From a virus (Duplodnaviria; Heunggongvirae; Uroviricota; Caudoviricetes): 6,398 bases of DNA. This document shows, piece after piece, positions 1-6,398 of this stretch (its first letter is position 1; each line of letters begins with the position of its first letter). A program made the position numbers and the translations under genes. The stretch lies in the IMG/VR virus record IMGVR_UViG_3300023312_000117, positions 1 to 6,398 of that record; one strand, 5' to 3'. The notes under the pieces were generated by a model. That model searched no databases. It saw only the letters and a program-made list of their open reading frames with translations, and was not told the origin of the DNA.

Positions 1-177
1 ACGCTGACGCATCTGCATGTCAGTAATTGCCGCGTTCGCCAGCTTCAGTTCTCTGGCATTTTTGTCGCGCTGGGCTTTGTAGGTAATGGCGTTATCACGG
101 TAATGATTAACCGCCCATGACAGACAGACGATGATGCAGATAACCAGAGCGGAGATAATCGCGGTTAATCTGTTCAT
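1..177 (-). CDS. Rz: Rz i-spanin (inner-membrane spanin subunit); only the N-terminal 59 codons are in the window, the 3' end runs off the window start
   Basis: Minus-strand ATG at 177-175 overlaps the R stop (ATGA). Translation [59 protein letters not shown] is near-identical to lambda Rz as recalled, with a hydrophobic N-terminal anchor. The embedded Rz1 would lie beyond the window start. Confidence 0.82.
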
Positions 178-650
178 ACCTCAATCTCTCTGACCATTCC
201 GCCCGCTTCTTTGAATTTTGCAATCAGGCTGTCAGCCTTATGCTCGAACTGACCATAACCAGCGCCCGGAAGTGAAGCCCAGATATTGCTGCAACGGTCG
301 ATAGCCTGACGAATATCACCGCGATCAATCATCGGTAAAGCGCCACGCTCTTTAATCTGTTGCAGTGCCACAGCGTCCTGGCTTTTCGGAGAGAAGTCTT
401 TCAGGCCAAGCTGCTTGCGGTAAGCAACCCACCAGCGTGAAAGAAGTTGATAACGGCCTGCAGCTGTTGATTTGAGTTTCGGGTTTAGCGTGACAAGTTT
501 GCGAGGGTGATCGGAGTAATCAGTGAAGAGTTCTCCACCGACAATAACGTCATAACCGTGGTTACGTGTCGGTTGTCGCCCGTTATCCGTTCCCTCTGAC
601 CATGCCACCATATCAAGGAAAGCTTTACGCTGGGAATTTAGTACCTGCAT
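174..650 (-). CDS. R: Endolysin R, lambda-type lytic transglycosylase (158 aa)
   Basis: ORF 174..650(-) translates to [51 protein letters not shown]..., near-identical to lambda R as recalled, including the catalytic Glu in the WSEGTD motif. ATG at 650-648 is preceded by AAGGAG with a 6-nt spacer. Sits between holin and Rz. Confidence 0.9.
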
Positions 651-653
651 AAA

Positions 654-980
654 TTACTCCTTAGAGCCACCAAACTTGTTACCGATTACTCTCATTGCAG
701 CCCCACGAATAGCATCAACACCGATCAGCCCCACCCCACCACCAATGGCAACAGATAGTGATTTAGGCCATCCGACATACTCAAGAGCGGATGCAAAAGT
801 CAGCGTCAGAGCGCCACAGAGTAGAATTTCGAGTGTTTTTCGCTTCCAGCCGCCACCACCGCCAAAATAGGCAATACGTAAACCAGCCATAACAATCGAC
901 ATAATCACTGCGCCCAGCGGTGTGTCTCCACGCCACCAGCTCTGGACCAACTCCAGCCATGTATTTGGGTTATGAGGCAT
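654..980 (-). CDS. Putative holin (108 aa, about three predicted transmembrane segments, Gly-rich loops); not a lambda S homolog
   Basis: ORF immediately upstream of R on the same strand, with its TAA stop (656-654) inside the R Shine-Dalgarno. Three hydrophobic stretches (LGAVIMSIVMAGLRIAYF, LEILLCGALTLTFASALEYVGW, LSVAIGGGVGLIGVDAI) and a charged C-terminus fit a class I holin topology. Function is inferred from position and hydropathy only. Confidence 0.55.
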   Translation of the reverse strand: MPHNPNTWLELVQSWWRGDTPLGAVIMSIVMAGLRIAYFGGGGGWKRKTLEILLCGALTLTFASALEYVGWPKSLSVAIGGGVGLIGVDAIRGAAMRVIGNKFGGSKE

Positions 981-1120
981 TTGTAGTTATCTCTCACCTC
1001 GCTGATACAGCAGGTGCAAATTGAGGAAACATCATGTACCGCAAATCAGAAGCGGAAACGTCAAAGAAGCCGAGTCAATGGATAACTGCGGGATAGGCTA
1101 GGACCAAGGAATCCCCAGAC

Positions 1121-1154
1121 CCAGAAACGACAAAACCCGCTCGATGGCGGGTTT
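1121..1154 (-). terminator. Candidate intrinsic terminator on the minus strand (possible tR'-like late terminator)
   Basis: Perfect 8-bp inverted repeat AAACCCGC (1133-1140) / GCGGGTTT (1147-1154) with a 6-nt loop. On the minus strand the hairpin is followed by TTTTGTCGTTTC. On the plus strand the trailing sequence is not T-rich, so it is mainly unidirectional. Confidence 0.4.
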
Positions 1155-1199
1155 AAGCTGTGTGGCGAAGTGAGCACACTTAACAGATTACGATATTTT

Positions 1200-1259
1200 T
1201 TGCGTACGCGTTAGTGTTTTGATAGAATTTTCAGCCACATAAAAATTCATTCTTATAAT
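1200..1259 (+). promoter_or_regulatory. Putative sigma70-type promoter region for the plus-strand two-gene operon
   Basis: Candidate hexamers: TTGCGT (1200-1205), 17 bp, TAGAAT (1223-1228); also TTGATA (1219-1224) and a consensus TATAAT (1254-1259) 12 nt before the ATG. A weak SD-like GGGA (1262-1265) lies 6 nt before ATG 1272. Which hexamers are used cannot be decided from sequence. Confidence 0.25.
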
Positions 1260-1271
1260 TCGGGATATATA

Positions 1272-2447
1272 ATGGATATAACTTGTTTAGAATGTGGCAA
1301 TGTTCTTGACGACCCAACTGTAGCTTGCGATAAATGCGGTGCCACGCCTCATGTTGTAGTGCTGGGCAAACAATCGTACTTTCCTATTGGTGCTGTAACA
1401 GCAAATCTTGAAAAAAATGATTCAAGAGCATTTGATTATCGATTAGGTGAAGTTTGGGATCTAAAAAATGAAGTCACATCTGAATTCATAACCAGAATTG
1501 AGAAAAAATTTAGCCGAAAAAACAAATTTCATAACTTCCTAGACTCAGATCACAACCCTTCATCCATTCCTACGATCCTAAAAAAATACATTAATAAGAA
1601 TAATGAATTCATTGATTTATCTAGAGCTATAATAGAGAAGCTTAAACATAATGCTAATAACGAATCGAGAGTTGCCCAACTTCAGGGGGGGAGCGTTGTT
1701 TTCATCCACTATAAGTCTACCGAACCAGAGGATTTGGGGAAACTTCTAATCGTAATGGTTGATAAACAAAGCGCCTATGACTTTGATTCGGATAAGTTGA
1801 CCCCAACAAGATTAAATCCAATTAATACCGATGCCTTACGGCAGGCTGCGATGTTCGATTTAACTTTATTCGAAGCCAGTTATCCAGAAAACAAGGGTGA
1901 CTCATATGTACATTTCTTGCAAGGTAAATCTAAAAGCGATTTTTTCAAAGACTCATTAGGTTGCCGACATGATTCGGACAATAAAAGAAGCATTCAGCAA
2001 TTATTCAGTGCTATAGATATTTTTGCTAGTAAAAACTCACTCGGTCGTGTACTGCGTGATACTATTGACAATGAAGTTAAATCCTTACTGGAAAAAAAAT
2101 CAAAAGATAAACACGGAAATAAGTCCGTTAAGATAGAGGATATTTCAAAAATAATTGACTCATGCCTGACTGATTCACACAAATGTAAGGGAACGTTTGT
2201 CGATTTTGTTAATCTTAATGGTTTCCAGATTGACCCTCAATTTGAACCAACTCCTAAAGCAGCTGAAAGCGCGCTTACAATTGAAGTGGCAGATAACGAC
2301 AATAATTTTAAGTTGAAAATAATGCGTGGAGCTATTGGAGACGAAAAGTCAAATAAGCCTGTAATTCTCACTGACAACAAATGCGAAATTGTGATAAAAT
2401 TGAGTCAGGCAAATTATGATGAACTCAAAAGATATAGAGACAGCTAA
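1272..2447 (+). CDS. Gene A: zinc-ribbon plus NA37-family (YejK/NdpA-like nucleoid-associated protein) domain protein, 391 aa
   Basis: ATG start, long ORF in AT-rich DNA. N-terminus has a Cys4 zinc-ribbon pattern, CLECG...CDKCG (Cys 5, 8, 19, 22). The central region GGSVVFIHYKS...LLIVMVD...NPINTDALRQAAMFDLTLFE...YVHFLQGKSKSDFFKDSLG aligns by eye with E. coli YejK as recalled (GGFVLFCHYRY...LLVAVLS...HADIVARIDLTEWE...[22 protein letters not shown]). Confidence 0.75.
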   Translation: MDITCLECGNVLDDPTVACDKCGATPHVVVLGKQSYFPIGAVTANLEKNDSRAFDYRLGEVWDLKNEVTSEFITRIEKKFSRKNKFHNFLDSDHNPSSIPTILKKYINKNNEFIDLSRAIIEKLKHNANNESRVAQLQGGSVVFIHYKSTEPEDLGKLLIVMVDKQSAYDFDSDKLTPTRLNPINTDALRQAAMFDLTLFEASYPENKGDSYVHFLQGKSKSDFFKDSLGCRHDSDNKRSIQQLFSAIDIFASKNSLGRVLRDTIDNEVKSLLEKKSKDKHGNKSVKIEDISKIIDSCLTDSHKCKGTFVDFVNLNGFQIDPQFEPTPKAAESALTIEVADNDNNFKLKIMRGAIGDEKSNKPVILTDNKCEIVIKLSQANYDELKRYRDS

Positions 2448-2449
2448 TA

Positions 2450-3664
2450 ATGACAATTGCTGATGACTTATCAAGATTAGCGCAGATTATTAACGGAGCC
2501 TCAAGCAGAGTTGAGGGCTACTACACTGTCATAAGTCTTGAAGAAAGCATTGTTATTGTAAATAGTTCTGAAATAATTAGACTGTTACAATCTATAGGTT
2601 ATAAAAAGGCAACAACCTGCATCGAAAATAATGAAATTTGGCTAGATCGCCAAGCTTCATCTTGGGATGATGCTATAATTTATGAGAATGTTGAGTCTTT
2701 TTGGTCTAGAGTAAACACCCAAAACGCTCTTCCGAAAAATTATATCATCGGAACGCCGTTAATACTCCCTACTTCTAAGAATGAAAGCATCGAAAAAATC
2801 CATATTTTCTTTATGTGGAAAGATATCCTTTCATTAATTGCTGATCATCATAACAGTGACTGCTCTGTCTTATTTTTCACCAATGAAGACAAAAGTTATA
2901 CAGTCGAACTCACGCATTTTTTACAATATAGCGAGATTAATCGCTTATCGAACTCGTCTCTTAAATATGAAATTATAAAGGAGCTTCTCGACACAATAAA
3001 AATCAATGATTTACACAAAAGCGAGCGCAAGCTCGTTATACGCTCAGCCATAAACGAAGTATTTAAAGCAAATGGTACGTTCAATTTCTTTGACTTGCTT
3101 AACTCTACTGAACTCGTCAGGAAAAAATATGATGAACTATATGAGATTTACACAAAGAGGTTTTCTGTAAATAAAATTCTTAACGAACTCGATGAGAAAA
3201 ATCTTGAGTTCACGAGTAAAATTAACGAATTCATATCATCTAATCAGACAAAAGCATTGACTATTCCCGGTGCATTAATAGCAGCTGGTGGCTTAGTGAA
3301 GGCTAATGAAACAACCGAAGCAATATTGATTATCGCAGGACTTTGGATGATAAAAAAAGTCAATTACATTTCTATTGAGATATTCAATGAAACATTCGAC
3401 AACTTACGTTCTCGAGTGGAGTCCGCTTTCGATAAGTATTTAAAGTTTGAAGAAAATAAAGAAATCAAAGATAATGCAGATAGTATTAAGAGTAGCATTA
3501 CAGGTTTGATTGATAAAGCTAAAAAAAGGATGAGAACTGTTAAATATCTCGCATCAGCCATGTTTTATGGAGGCCTTATTTACGTTGGATATAAACAGTT
3601 CCCAGTCTTTTTTGAAAAATCGGCAGTAAATCTATTTTATTTTTTATGCCATACTATAAGCTAA
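2450..3664 (+). CDS. Gene B: uncharacterised 404-aa protein with C-terminal hydrophobic (putative membrane-associating) segments; candidate effector partner of gene A
   Basis: ATG at 2450 lies 2 nt after the gene A stop (TAATAATG), implying an operon. Same AT-rich composition. Hydrophobic stretches near the C-terminus: ALTIPGALIAAGGLV, AILIIAGLWMI and YLASAMFYGGLIYVGY. No catalytic motif recognised. The 3' end overlaps the 3' end of Q convergently by 21 bp. Confidence 0.7.
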   Translation: MTIADDLSRLAQIINGASSRVEGYYTVISLEESIVIVNSSEIIRLLQSIGYKKATTCIENNEIWLDRQASSWDDAIIYENVESFWSRVNTQNALPKNYIIGTPLILPTSKNESIEKIHIFFMWKDILSLIADHHNSDCSVLFFTNEDKSYTVELTHFLQYSEINRLSNSSLKYEIIKELLDTIKINDLHKSERKLVIRSAINEVFKANGTFNFFDLLNSTELVRKKYDELYEIYTKRFSVNKILNELDEKNLEFTSKINEFISSNQTKALTIPGALIAAGGLVKANETTEAILIIAGLWMIKKVNYISIEIFNETFDNLRSRVESAFDKYLKFEENKEIKDNADSIKSSITGLIDKAKKRMRTVKYLASAMFYGGLIYVGYKQFPVFFEKSAVNLFYFLCHTIS

Positions 3665-4000
3665 CATTGCTAAACAGCCGTCAACAAACCCCATTGCAGT
3701 TTGCAGTTCCTTCCTAATTGTGCCATCAGAGCATTTTCTCTTCTTCGCAATAGTGCGTAATGAGATACCGATAACAAAGTGGGCGATGATGAGCTCATAT
3801 TCCTCTGGTTTATACCTTCTCAACCGAGCCACACAACTGTCTATCATGATGCCTTCGTCATCATCACACTGAATCCGTGACTTTTTGCCATGAGGTAAAA
3901 GTCCCTTGAAACCAGCCGCTATCGGCTGCCAGTCCACTCCGCTATTGTCTGAAGCAGCCCAAGCTCCCCAACGATCCATTACTTCATACATATCACGCAT
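3644..4000 (-). CDS. quuD: Late-gene antiterminator Q-like protein (QuuD/phage 82-type Q family), 118 aa from ATG 4000
   Basis: Translation MRDMYEVMDRWGAWAASDNSGVDWQPIAAGFKGLLPHGKKSRIQCDDDEG...CSDGTIRKELQTAMGFVDG matches the DLP12 QuuD-type Q pattern as recalled. ATG 4000-3998 has GGAG 7 nt upstream; the longer TTG start at 4054 in the ORF track is less likely. Lies between rusA/ylcG and the lysis genes, the expected Q position. Confidence 0.78.
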   Translation of the reverse strand: MRDMYEVMDRWGAWAASDNSGVDWQPIAAGFKGLLPHGKKSRIQCDDDEGIMIDSCVARLRRYKPEEYELIIAHFVIGISLRTIAKKRKCSDGTIRKELQTAMGFVDGCLAMLAYSMA

Positions 4001-4084
4001 CAACTTTCTCCACAAAATCAGGCCAGAACGCCAATTACAAGCAAAAATCAACAAAACAGTATTAGTTGATTGTTATCTCTGACT

Positions 4085-4225
4085 TCATACTCCTGCTCCT
4101 GTCAGGGTTTTGGCGTAATTCTTCAGTATTCGGTAATCGGTCAAAACAGAACCGGGGAAACGATATAAGCGCAGACGCCCCCAGCGGTGGCGAAGAAATT
4201 CTGCCATATTAAACTCAAACATCAT
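4085..4225 (-). CDS. ylcG: YlcG-like small protein (46 aa, DUF3950 family)
   Basis: Hand translation of the minus strand gives [49 protein letters not shown] at 4225-4223 overlaps the rusA stop (ATGA). Not in the ORF track, presumably below its length cutoff. Matches the DLP12 gene order rusA-ylcG-quuD. Confidence 0.6.
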
Positions 4226-4584
4226 TCATTCCCCATTTCGGTGATGGTCAGTTCCAGCCTCCCACCTTTGGTAACAGGCATCTTCACAACGCGGTAATCA
4301 ACGACCTGAGCATCATCCAGCCAGAAACCTGCTTTAGTGAGTGCGTCAAAAGCGGCTTTTTGCAGATTATCCAGGTCACGGCGACGGCGATCCGGCATGT
4401 GGCACTCAATGCGGATTTTCACAGGCATAGCTAGGCCGATATCCAGCATTGCGTTTTTAATGATTCGGGCGACGTTATCGCGGTATGCCTGCCCCTCTGC
4501 GCTGACGTGCGTGCGCCCGCGATTATGGCGGTAATAGCGATTATTGCTCGGAGGCCAGGGTAATGTGATGCTGTAGGTATTCAC
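4222..4584 (-). CDS. rusA: RusA Holliday-junction resolvase (120 aa)
   Basis: Translation [120 protein letters not shown] matches E. coli K-12 DLP12 RusA as recalled. GTG start at 4584 overlaps the ybcO stop. Confidence 0.92.
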
Positions 4585-4871
4585 GCCTTAATAACCCCCT
4601 CTTTCAGCCACATAACCTGTGTTCTCGCCATACCTTCCAGCGCGCATTCTTTTGCATATGCAGCATCGACAAAATGTGTGCGGCGGTCGATTTCGTCGTG
4701 GCAGGCAGAACATGCAATGGTGGCAATCAGGTCTGGCGGTTTGATACCGGTACCGCACAATCCAGCCAGCCGGATATGTGCCAGTACAGACGTTTCAGAA
4801 TTGCCATTACATACGCCAGGGATTCTTACCTGGCATTCCCGACCACGCGCTGCTTTTCTCAAATCAGCCAT
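4581..4871 (-). CDS. ybcO: YbcO-like protein (DUF1364; putative nuclease), 96 aa from ATG 4871
   Basis: Translation from the internal [99 protein letters not shown], matches DLP12 YbcO as recalled. GGAGG lies upstream of ATG 4871; the TTG at 4910 is an unlikely extension. Confidence 0.82.
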
Positions 4872-5034
4872 GATTCCTCCTTGCTGCCAGTCGCAACCAT
4901 TTTTTATCAACCAGGCTAGCGGTATATCCGAGCAGTGTTGGTATTTCGGATGGCTTCGGCTCAGGCTTACGCTTACGACGATTTGATACTCTGTAGATGT
5001 GTCCGTTCATGACACGAATAAGCGGTGTAGCCAT
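4864..5034 (-). CDS. ninE: NinE-like small protein (56 aa)
   Basis: Hand translation gives [59 protein letters not shown] at 5034-5032 overlaps the ninB stop (TAATG) and the 3' end overlaps the ybcO start. Position between ninB and ybcO matches DLP12. Below the ORF-track length cutoff. Confidence 0.75.
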   Translation of the reverse strand: MATPLIRVMNGHIYRVSNRRKRKPEPKPSEIPTLLGYTASLVDKKWLRLAARRNHG

Positions 5035-5489
5035 TACGCCTCCTGCTTGTCACGGAGCAGCTGGAACTCGCAGCTCTGCGGAATAGTCAGGTGGCAGCCA
5101 ATATTCACCGCCCAGGCTTCAACCTTACACAGGAAGACATACATCTCTCCGGTATCAAGATCGGAGGTATGGCGTAACGACTGGATAGTGGTGATATCAC
5201 CGGTTACGACATCAACCAGGTCTTTGGTTTCATAACCGAGATATGTGTGTTTGAGAGCATCTTTTACCCAAGCTGGAGTGGCGAACGTTTTACCCCTGTT
5301 GATGAGGTATTCACTGATTTCGCTGTACCACATGTGGCTGAGTGCATTCTGGGAAAGACTGCGTTTCTCACGCCACGGTTTAAGCACCATGCGAAAGCAT
5401 TTGCCCTCCTCCAGATAAGGCTGGATCTGCCGACCGATAGCGGTGAAGTTACCGCGATGTAATTTGATGCCATCTTGTGGGAGATTCAC
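5034..5489 (-). CDS. ninB: NinB-family recombination protein (YbcN-like), 151 aa
   Basis: Translation [62 protein letters not shown]... matches DLP12 YbcN / lambda NinB family as recalled. GTG start at 5489 is preceded by GGAGGTGAAGC. Confidence 0.86.
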
Positions 5490-5685
5490 GCTTCACCTCC
5501 GCAGAGGTCAAACGCTGGATGCAAAAAATCGCAGGTGCATCTCTGCATCTGTGAAGGGAGAAGAGAGTTTGGATTGTATGTGCGCATAAACGTCCCCGTT
5601 TAGCGCAGAAGTCACCGGAGTTGTTCAGGCTCCGATGACATGATTATGGCAAAATGATTATGTAAAATCAAAAGCCAAAAAACAA

Positions 5686-6375
5686 TTATGGTTTATTTTC
5701 TAGCTCTGATTTTTTGAAAGCTTCTATCAGACGATTAGCATCTTCTGTACCACCAGGAAGCACGTTTGATTTTTTAAGAATATACGGTGGGAACTTTGTG
5801 GTTAAATATTCATGCTTAAACCATCTACGAAACTCTGACAATGCAGAATCAGGATAGGCATTAATGATCTGAGGATTGGAACTTGCCTGAAGAAAATCTT
5901 CAGGGTAATAATGCTCACAGTCTACTCTTTCTCCAAATTCTGTTGCTAACCCCTTTGCTTTCCAGTGACGCGCCCAGCAAGAACCAACACTGCCATCAGG
6001 TACGGTATGCTGATTAATCGCTAATCCAGCATTGATGAGATCTACCATCATACCTGCAATTTCATTAAATATAATGAAATACCCATCAGGTATGGTTCCC
6101 TTATCTTTTAATAAAGATACTCTGTCATGGTAATGCCTCCACGGGTCCTCCGGTTGATATTTTAGCGCCTCGTATATAAATGTCTTGAGGCCTTTTTTAG
6201 CAAGCTCTCTGTAAGATCTAATTGCAGTCTCACTTTCTGCTTGTTTTGCTTCAAAGGCATAGTATTCAAGTATAGCCATGCATACAACATCTGGATAAGC
6301 ATGGTACTCAACACCATTTCGAATTATTGGTATATAAAGTTTTTCATTAGACTGGCCCCCTGAATCTCCAGACAA
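5686..6375 (-). CDS. Uncharacterised AT-rich ORF (229 codons if started at TTG 6375); family not recognised
   Basis: Long minus-strand ORF upstream of ninB with GC visibly lower than the nin genes (spot counts ~27-40% on 60-nt lines). The ORF opens at TTG (6375-6373) directly after an in-frame TGA; the first in-frame ATG is at codon 33 (6279) and has no obvious SD. The start codon is therefore uncertain. Confidence 0.5.
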   Translation of the reverse strand: MSGDSGGQSNEKLYIPIIRNGVEYHAYPDVVCMAILEYYAFEAKQAESETAIRSYRELAKKGLKTFIYEALKYQPEDPWRHYHDRVSLLKDKGTIPDGYFIIFNEIAGMMVDLINAGLAINQHTVPDGSVGSCWARHWKAKGLATEFGERVDCEHYYPEDFLQASSNPQIINAYPDSALSEFRRWFKHEYLTTKFPPYILKKSNVLPGGTEDANRLIEAFKKSELENKP

Positions 6376-6380
6376 CCAAT

Positions 6381-6398
6381 ATCACTTAAATAAGTGAT
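6381..6398. promoter_or_regulatory. 18-bp perfect palindrome ATCACTTA-AA-TAAGTGAT; candidate operator or protein-binding site at the window edge
   Basis: Positions 6381-6398 read ATCACTTAAATAAGTGAT, identical to its reverse complement. It lies immediately 5' of the start of the 229-codon ORF. The ATCAC half-site resembles lambdoid repressor operator half-sites. Truncated by the window end, so context is unknown. Confidence 0.3.

Follow-up and report, generated by a model that had tools for sequence, protein, structure and literature searches.

The stretch of DNA analysed here, positions 1 to 6,398 of the IMG/VR virus record IMGVR_UViG_3300023312_000117 (Caudoviricetes; all 6,398 nucleotides are called the window below), comes from a lambdoid, DLP12-like prophage with ~50% G+C and covers its region of late regulation and lysis, in which every phage gene lies on the minus strand. 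Between the holin gene and the gene of the antiterminator Q there are two genes on the plus strand, antisense to the flanking phage genes, which we identify as the operon of the antiphage system DS-1: gene A (DS-1A, a nucleoid-associated anti-phage protein of 391 residues, 1272-2447) and gene B (DS-1B, an anti-phage protein of 404 residues and presumed membrane effector, 2450-3664). Their junction reads GAC AGC TAA TA ATG and leaves a gap of 2 nt within TAATAATG. Both are real genes and not chance open reading frames, as the homologues of each number in the hundreds and the linkage of the two is conserved. An earlier note on this DNA had described two tightly coupled plus-strand genes between Q and the holin, which the open reading frames bear out, and had judged them AT-rich from spot counts of 32% G+C against 53% in rusA. 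These counts are close to the full values of 36.1% for gene A and 33.7% for gene B, compared with 52.9% for rusA, 51.1% for the holin gene and 50.3% for the lysozyme gene. The low G+C content persists to about position 3700 at the right side of the module.

Identification of the operon as DS-1

Gene A matches the NCBIfam equivalog NF053868 (DS1_1_antiphage) over its full length with 451.4 bits (cut-off 330, E 2.1e-135), and gene B matches the equivalog NF053869 (DS1_2_antiphage) with 375.2 bits (cut-off 315, E 2.8e-112). DS-1, with the working id D390, was reported by DeWeirdt, Mahoney and Laub in their DefensePredictor study (bioRxiv 10.1101/2025.01.08.631726, January 2025; Science 2026, PMC13092281), where it is listed in Tables S6, S8 and S11 as a transcription unit of 2,393 bp (220602-222994) in a prophage. 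The operon in the window has the same unit length of 2,393 bp, is prophage-borne as well and encodes identical proteins: A agrees with the DS-1/D390 protein of Table S8 in 391/391 residues, and B is identical to the sequence given there across all 399 residues printed. In RefSeq the pair corresponds to WP_000355468.1 and WP_000150292.1 on a DNA copy that is 100% identical, and the newest RefSeq names are 'nucleoid-associated anti-phage protein' and 'anti-phage protein'. The whole window differs from its best-matching genome copy at 39 of 6,398 positions, which lie in the flanks, the two genes being without a difference. Going by these identities we regard it as practically certain that the locus is DS-1, a system that is already described, named, bench-validated and part of the NCBI annotation models.

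The earlier note had called the pair undescribed and recognised no named system in it, and this part of its reading falls: a confident match to an already-described system, which it had itself listed as refuting the proposal, is what we found in the two DS-1 equivalogs. That DS-1 was not recognised is understandable, because PADLOC-DB v2.0.0 (2023), searched at E <= 1, also holds no family for A or B. As this library predates DS-1, its miss is not evidence of novelty. Of the database searches suggested in the note, that with Pfam found NA37 in gene A and that with PADLOC no family for either protein.

DefensePredictor is a machine-learning discovery approach, in which candidate units were expressed from their native promoter on a low-copy plasmid in E. 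coli MG1655 and challenged with 24 phages, a positive being an at least 10-fold drop in the efficiency of plating (EOP) or smaller plaques (PMC13092281). According to Table S7 of the same study, of which all 26 occurrences of 'D390' were covered so that the record is complete, the -log(EOP) for DS-1 is 7.6 with Bas1, which formed no plaques, 2.7 with Bas26, 1.7 with Bas3, 1.7 with T3, 0.9 with T7 and -0.15 with SECphi27, the latter five all showing smaller plaques, and 1.0 with T5, for which the plaque size was unreduced; the system is flagged as 'replicated TRUE'. The identical operon therefore protects E. coli against phages, as expected from the earlier proposal of a defence module. The only remark of DeWeirdt et al. 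on the function of DS-1 is that the YejK domain is newly validated in defence, and our literature search found no further names for, or follow-up studies of, DS-1.

It is hardly credible that the pair serves prophage or host physiology instead, for example chromosome organisation or the control of lysogeny, and that the plaque effects arise from plasmid expression. YejK is a housekeeping nucleoid protein and the weaker effects, those on T5 and T7, equal or narrowly miss the 10-fold threshold of the study, but the 10^7-fold reduction of Bas1 and the 10^2.7-fold reduction of Bas26 were obtained with the native promoter in a low-copy vector and carry the replication flag. Moreover, the operon and its relatives are found in defence-type contexts as detailed below (a swap site at which TIR and nuclease/methylase genes are found as well, a cargo site of a P2-like prophage, TIR and nSTAND neighbours), and the sequence of the module diverges fast while the neighbouring Q stays ~80% identical.

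Gene A is a YejK paralogue with a zinc-ribbon-like motif

Residues 64-376 of gene A (1461-2399, plus strand) match the nucleoid-associated domain NA37 (PF04245) with E 1.2e-23 and 84.5 bits against a cut-off of 24.6, confirming the NA37-like assignment of the earlier note. Among solved structures its sole relative is E. coli YejK (9be2_A, E 1.2e-9). DS-1A thus belongs to the same PF04245 domain family as housekeeping YejK, but reaches only 81.4 bits with the YejK equivalog NF001557 and, as this is far under the cut-off of 341, is a YejK paralogue and not YejK itself. It also differs from YejK in being AT-rich mobile cargo, in being always paired with gene B and in having an additional N-terminal zinc ribbon. 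The latter is a zinc-ribbon-like motif of the form CxxC-x10-CxxC (Cys5, Cys8, Cys19 and Cys22; 1278-1349, plus strand), assigned from the cysteine positions, and the Pfam zinc-ribbon models remain below threshold on this N-terminus (E 0.07-0.28). In the HHpred analysis of DeWeirdt et al. residues 3-26 of A resemble a NinF-like zinc beta-ribbon with a probability of 86%, followed by YejK/NA37 at residues 42-382. A CxxC...CxxC or CxxC...CxC pattern is present in 9/11 family members of A and is missing from the contig locus L003 and the Pseudomonas locus L011.

Gene B combines an acidic soluble domain with hydrophobic helices

Gene B has no credible Pfam match and no PADLOC family; the Pfam hits to SWIB, CdvA and UPF0184 (E 0.09-0.6) were rejected as noise. 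An AlphaFold2 model of gene B (predicted local distance difference test score, pLDDT, 86) shows a confident soluble N-terminal domain followed by long helices, with an alpha/beta domain at residues ~1-165, a short helical bundle at 169-218 and a long helix at 220-268. Behind this helix follow a hydrophobic helical hairpin, ~60 residues of charged helix and a third hydrophobic helix at residues ~366-384. The soluble alpha/beta and helical part (residues 1-222; 2450-3115, plus strand) is a candidate docking surface for A. Its 220 N-terminal residues are the most variable part of the family alignment, and the domain is acidic in 11/11 members, in the copy of the window mildly so (net charge -8 over 224 residues). 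The best-conserved block of the family alignment, residues 226-300 (3125-3349, plus strand), extends along the long helix and on into the first hydrophobic one and contains most of the invariant or near-invariant columns, namely Y227, S239, N241, K242, E246, K257, E260, Q266, K268, A269, P273, A275 and A278.

From the family hydropathy and the model the hairpin is placed at residues ~268-286 and ~288-305 (3251-3364, plus strand), with family-averaged peaks of 2.1 and 2.5 in an 11-residue window; in the model itself its helices extend over residues 271-284 and 288-331. The third hydrophobic helix (3545-3601, plus strand; peak 1.9), assigned from family hydropathy and charge, is preceded by the basic cluster KAKKRMR. 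All three hydrophobic stretches are kept across the family, so that the C-terminal hydrophobic segments pointed out in the earlier note are real and conserved. Hydropathy and model together make it likely that the hairpin inserts into a membrane.

A Foldseek search of the full-length model against the PDB, as the note had suggested, gave no match at E <= 0.001, the family profile of B found no match among the PDB sequences, and the N-terminal domain had no fold relative in the structure search. The alpha-pore-forming toxin AhlB/SmhB and CorA were rejected as relatives, as their Foldseek probabilities are < 0.15. Judged from the model, the recurring matches to CorA/Mrs2 and to ClyA-type pores would reflect a similar layout and not homology.

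The two genes occur as a pair in mobile elements

A word-indexed search returned 69 relatives of B, mainly from Enterobacterales, and an exhaustive profile search extended these to 769 cluster representatives at E <= 1e-3, most of them full length. Gene A lies directly 5' of gene B on the same strand, abutting or overlapping it, in 12/12 species-representative genomes from Enterobacterales, Pseudomonas, Alteromonadales and Cellvibrionales. The same order was found in 4/4 distant relatives of B (E 3e-31 to 6e-17) and in 56/61 loci on viral contigs of IMG/VR, the other five being accounted for by contig ends, partial BLAST segments and a single truncated remnant of B. Across family members the spacing between A and B ranges from -44 to +17 nt. 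The co-occurrence asked for in the earlier note is therefore present in essentially all loci, and by their gene order A and B are an obligate two-gene module.

Carriers of the pair include lambdoid prophages with the operon in the same slot between Q and holin, a P2-like prophage with the pair between ogr and gpD, an integrase/relaxase island with a TIR (TIR_2) gene nearby and a locus beside an nSTAND1-like gene. Distant pairs of the family in such other mobile contexts are located at L019 2890-5230, L016 3325-5230 and L020 2820-5191. The NA37 gene of L016 is called at 228 residues compared with 364 in the near-identical L017 and L018, and may be truncated or miscalled. Neither blastn nor tblastn matched DS-1 in 50,697 sequenced phage records (INPHARED), and prophages and other integrated elements are the only places in which the operon is seen. 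Among complete E. coli genomes 106/5,426 (~2%) carry DS-1 as a single near-clonal allele; blastn brought up no diverged copy in E. coli, the 107 copies being without exception >= 99% identical.

Two loci look like decayed copies: in L013 (Photorhabdus viridis, 5651-6948) only an N-terminal fragment of A is left and B is split over two frames, and in L060 (4837-5268) only the C-terminal third of B remains, beside Q. L003, a contig of 2.6 kb from a metagenome-assembled genome labelled Lactobacillales, encodes a pair with 48% (A) and 38% (B) identity to that of E. coli. As the distribution is otherwise gammaproteobacterial, mis-binning is more likely here than a true Firmicute host.

In one E. 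coli genome (NZ_OZ547033.1, 1467102-1470385) an IS1 element is inserted in gene A, annotated there as two nucleoid-associated fragments, and gene B is apparently intact, which argues that B alone is not lethal, provided that it is still expressed. This copy bears on the idea of a classical toxin-antitoxin pair, in which B would be a membrane toxin neutralised by A and the shut-off of host expression by the phage would deplete A. The tight operon with translational coupling and the membrane-active candidate toxin would suit such a pair, but a free toxin B would be hard to tolerate in the IS1-carrying genome, and A is a large DNA-binding protein of 391 residues and unlike a labile antitoxin. Additionally, the genes of the analogous PANGU systems described below are not toxic singly and both are needed (10.64898/2026.04.06.716658). 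We therefore consider a toxin-antitoxin pair very improbable.

The interval between Q and holin is a swap site for antisense cargo

In lambdoid phages the interval between Q and the lysis genes is known to carry morons, with stx in Stx phages and nmpC in DLP12. The slot of DS-1 downstream of Q is the same and, like nmpC, the operon is transcribed against the late operon; it differs from both in its cargo, in its own promoter-like sites and in its position upstream of the conserved late terminator. Comparison with related E. coli prophages shows that the interval from Q to the conserved holin-upstream sequence (981-1245 and 3644-3700 of the window) is a swap site, as could be anticipated from the moron locus named in the earlier note, and that the alternative cargo is always antisense to the late genes. 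It comprises an AAA-ATPase annotated as 'ATP-dependent nuclease' together with a cytosine (Dcm) methyltransferase, a TIR-domain protein, and two hypothetical proteins without Pfam or NCBIfam match (loci L014 3800-6634, L022 2972-4460, L023 4818-5633 and L024 4808-6419). The last of these, WP_001433853.1 and WP_000623433.1, are encoded as a two-gene cargo at L024 4808-5836 and 5844-6419, with a variant at L022 2972-4460, and by their position in the slot are a candidate for a further defence system.

The borders of the module can be drawn from the same comparison. On the left, the holin-upstream region from 960 to ~1215-1245 is common to 574 E. coli genomes, only ~106 of them with DS-1, and prophages without DS-1 share this sequence only up to ~1213-1245. 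On the right, Q alleles that are not linked to DS-1 align only from ~3675-3700 onward, so that the module spans ~2.45 kb. Such sharp breaks in homology fit, together with the low G+C content, the horizontal acquisition that the note had proposed. The left edge (1215-1271, plus strand), defined by comparison with other prophages and by consensus matches, contains the likely DS-1 promoter and ribosome-binding region, with promoter-like sites TTGATA-16-AAAAAT at 1219-1246 and TTCAGC-18-TATAAT ending at 1259, both identified as consensus matches only, and GGGA 7 nt ahead of the ATG of gene A. The right edge (3644-3700, both strands) follows from the open reading frame coordinates, the sequence and the Q alignment. 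Here the 3' ends of B on the plus strand and Q on the minus strand overlap by 21 nt at 3644-3664. The last ~10-18 codons of Q are supplied by the AT-rich module and cannot be aligned with Q alleles unlinked to DS-1; the inserted module has therefore rewritten the C-terminus of Q.

A strong intrinsic terminator on the minus strand at 1133-1154 (AAACCCGC-CATCGA-GCGGGTTT followed by TGTCGTTTCT) lies upstream of the holin gene. It is located within the region conserved across the 574 E. coli genomes and belongs to the phage late region, so that position 1155, at which the earlier note let the operon begin, falls just past this terminator and outside the module edge. The terminator is probably of the tR' type that is read through by Q-modified polymerase, and if so, its position would suggest a putative late promoter between terminator and gene A, divergent from the promoter of DS-1. 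As DS-1 lies upstream of the late-region terminator, late transcription that depends on Q is directed away from the operon.

In L015 (E. coli O104:H4 2009EL-2050, 5141-7869) this Q allele and DS-1 proteins of identical sequence lie within a different late region, which is Stx-phage-like and has three genes for tRNAs, an esterase of the SASA family and a holin of class II. The block of Q and DS-1 thus moves as a unit between prophage backbones. Pairs that have diverged to ~41% (B) and ~55% (A) identity still adjoin Q genes that are ~80% identical, from which it follows that the cargo either evolves much faster than the neighbouring Q or has been exchanged repeatedly.

A possible mode of action similar to PANGU

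Nucleoid-associated proteins (NAPs) that resemble YejK have been described as infection sensors in the PANGU systems (Li et al., bioRxiv 10.64898/2026.04.06.716658, April 2026). In type I PANGU the NAP binds long double-stranded DNA non-specifically and sits on the nucleoid until it is freed by the T4-induced degradation of the chromosome, whereupon the NAP dimer clamps a toxSAS effector at its acidic 'DMK' domain and activates this effector, and with a DNA-binding-dead NAP the pair is toxic without any phage (10.64898/2026.04.06.716658). Type II PANGU from E. coli pairs the NAP Pag2A with Pag2B, whose acidic N-terminal domain is combined with a transmembrane (TM) domain at the C-terminus; both genes are required, neither is toxic alone, and the growth curves indicate abortive infection (10.64898/2026.04.06.716658). 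Furthermore, Pag2A-GFP leaves the nucleoid upon T4 infection and the dissociation constant (KD) for the binding of Pag2A to the acidic N-terminal domain of Pag2B is 19 nM (10.64898/2026.04.06.716658).

DS-1 resembles type II PANGU in being bicistronic, with a gap of 2 nt, and in encoding a YejK-like NAP, as seen from the matches to NA37 (E 1.2e-23) and 9be2 (E 1.2e-9). Compared by description and not by sequence, DS-1B is like Pag2B in its C-terminal hydrophobic or TM helices and in having a soluble N-terminal domain, which in DS-1B is mildly acidic. The pairing of a nucleic-acid-binding sensor with a membrane effector, assumed in the earlier note, is what the PANGU preprint reports for operons of a NAP and a TM protein. 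With type I PANGU DS-1 shares the YejK-like NAP, which as Pag1A is the sensor there and acts on an effector with an acidic NAP-binding domain, whereas the type I effector (Pag1B, a GRel toxSAS) is a cytoplasmic alarmone synthetase and DS-1B has no Pfam match and a hydrophobic C-terminus. Two further differences from PANGU are the zinc ribbon of DS-1A, zinc not being mentioned in the PANGU text, and the location, as the PANGU operons were chosen for their linkage to defence islands and DS-1 lies in a prophage late region.

As DS-1 has the architecture of type II PANGU, we take the same logic as the best explanation and hold a PANGU-like mechanism, argued by analogy, to be somewhat more probable than all other explanations together. 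DS-1A, YejK-like and with its N-terminal zinc ribbon, would be held on chromosomal DNA in uninfected cells. Destruction of the host chromosome by a phage would deprive A of its DNA and set it free, and free A would then dock on the acidic N-terminal cytoplasmic domain of B. Docking might turn on the C-terminal membrane module of B, i.e. the hydrophobic hairpin and the third helix joined by long helices, and activated B would damage the inner membrane. The infected cell would no longer support phage growth, resulting in abortive infection and protection of the lysogen population.

The phages restricted by DS-1 are T1-like Drexlerviridae (Bas1, Bas3), T5-like phages (T5, Bas26) and T7-like phages (T3, T7). 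T7 and T3 degrade host DNA by means of gp3 and gp6. Degradation of host DNA is also described for T1 and T5 in the PANGU preprint (10.64898/2026.04.06.716658), and we infer that it is the trait shared by the three unrelated groups of sensitive phages, which supports the proposed mechanism. No row for lambda, a phage that does not degrade host DNA, is among the DS-1 positives of Table S7.

Several points weigh against this interpretation. The spectrum of DS-1 is the opposite of that of PANGU-Ecu, which restricts T4 and not T1 or T5 (10.64898/2026.04.06.716658): DS-1 does not show the type II spectrum but acts most strongly on a T1-like phage and also on T5, and its table lacks a T4 row. As the spectra are opposite, DS-1 is probably not the PANGU-Ecu operon, or else it responds at another trigger threshold; the two studies also differ in vector, promoter and expression level. 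The difference in spectrum argues against the same operon, not against the same mode of action. In addition, the published data on DS-1 are plaque assays only, without a mechanism (PMC13092281), and the complete loss of Bas1 plaques could be direct immunity. On the side of the effector, the N-terminal domain of B is only mildly acidic and has no fold relative, so that it is at most a putative 'DNA mimic', and the arms of the hairpin are short for full membrane insertion, with ~15-18 residues each.

The same spectrum has to be considered for direct sensing, in which A would recognise a phage component and not the degradation of host DNA, perhaps by its zinc ribbon, and then activate B. The ribbon has been added to the YejK fold in nine of the 11 members and, as mentioned, has no counterpart in the PANGU text; T4, a strong degrader of host DNA, is not among the DS-1 positives although Bas1 is blocked ~10^7-fold, and a phage-specific strength of protection is typical for sensors of particular phage components. 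However, L003 and L011 keep the pairing of A and B without a ribbon, the obvious common trait of the sensitive phages from three unrelated families is the breakdown of host DNA, and in PANGU both NAP types leave the nucleoid and a DNA-binding-dead NAP is enough for type I toxicity (10.64898/2026.04.06.716658). Direct sensing is thus unlikely, though the most plausible of the alternatives considered here; its candidate ligands would be the linear DNA of the entering phage or the ends of this DNA, an intermediate of replication or a protein of the phage.

The absence of Bas1 plaques would likewise be expected from superinfection exclusion, with B at the inner membrane blocking DNA entry or a receptor, A regulating or stabilising B, and the cells surviving. 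Such zero plaque counts are seen with classical exclusion proteins, the system is prophage-encoded, the hydrophobic helices of B are conserved, and the layout of B matches only generic helical folds that establish no effector chemistry. Yet it would be odd to find an entry blocker strictly tied to a cytoplasmic DNA-binding protein in hundreds of diverged pairs, and the receptors and injection routes of the affected phages differ (LptD for Bas01, mostly BtuB or FhuA for T5-like phages). Together with the abortive behaviour that the analogous type II PANGU shows at the population level (10.64898/2026.04.06.716658), this makes exclusion improbable.

A more far-reaching proposal is that DS-1 represents a separate branch of NAP immunity rather than one more type II PANGU, with a zinc-ribbon sensor and a range covering T1-, T5- and T7-type phages but not T4, with an effector whose N-terminal domain has no fold relative and whose CorA-like layout might correspond to a new gated membrane channel, and with the interval between Q and the late promoter as a dedicated hotspot of antisense defence. 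This we put forward only tentatively, and rather doubt it as a whole.

The locus itself adds no discovery, as machine learning had detected the operon before and bench experiments had validated it. It is an example of a defence operon picked from sequence alone, by its low G+C content, its moron slot and the combination of a nucleic acid binder with a hydrophobic partner. What remains of interest is the mechanism of DS-1, which is unpublished, the N-terminal domain of B with its lack of fold relatives, and the hotspot for antisense cargo with its unmatched protein pair. How a nucleoid protein switches on a membrane effector is an open question even in the PANGU preprint (10.64898/2026.04.06.716658), and DS-1 would be a convenient model for it, having a native promoter, a strong Bas1 phenotype and a single near-clonal allele in ~2% of the complete E. 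coli genomes.

Other genes of the window

The lysis genes to the left of the operon are those of a GH24 lysozyme (174-650, minus strand) and of a holin of the lambda family (654-980, minus strand; PF05106). To the right lie the gene of the antiterminator Q (3644-4000/4054, minus strand; PF06530), ylcG, rusA (4222-4584, minus strand), ybcO, ninE and ybcN, all of them on the minus strand. The window ends in the 3' part (5686-6398, minus strand) of a hypothetical gene for 309 residues, which is complete at L001 10532-11461 and corresponds to WP_000068668.1. It has no Pfam or NCBIfam match, and with a G+C content of ~0.38-0.42, below that of its neighbours, it may represent a further accessory cargo element of the nin region.

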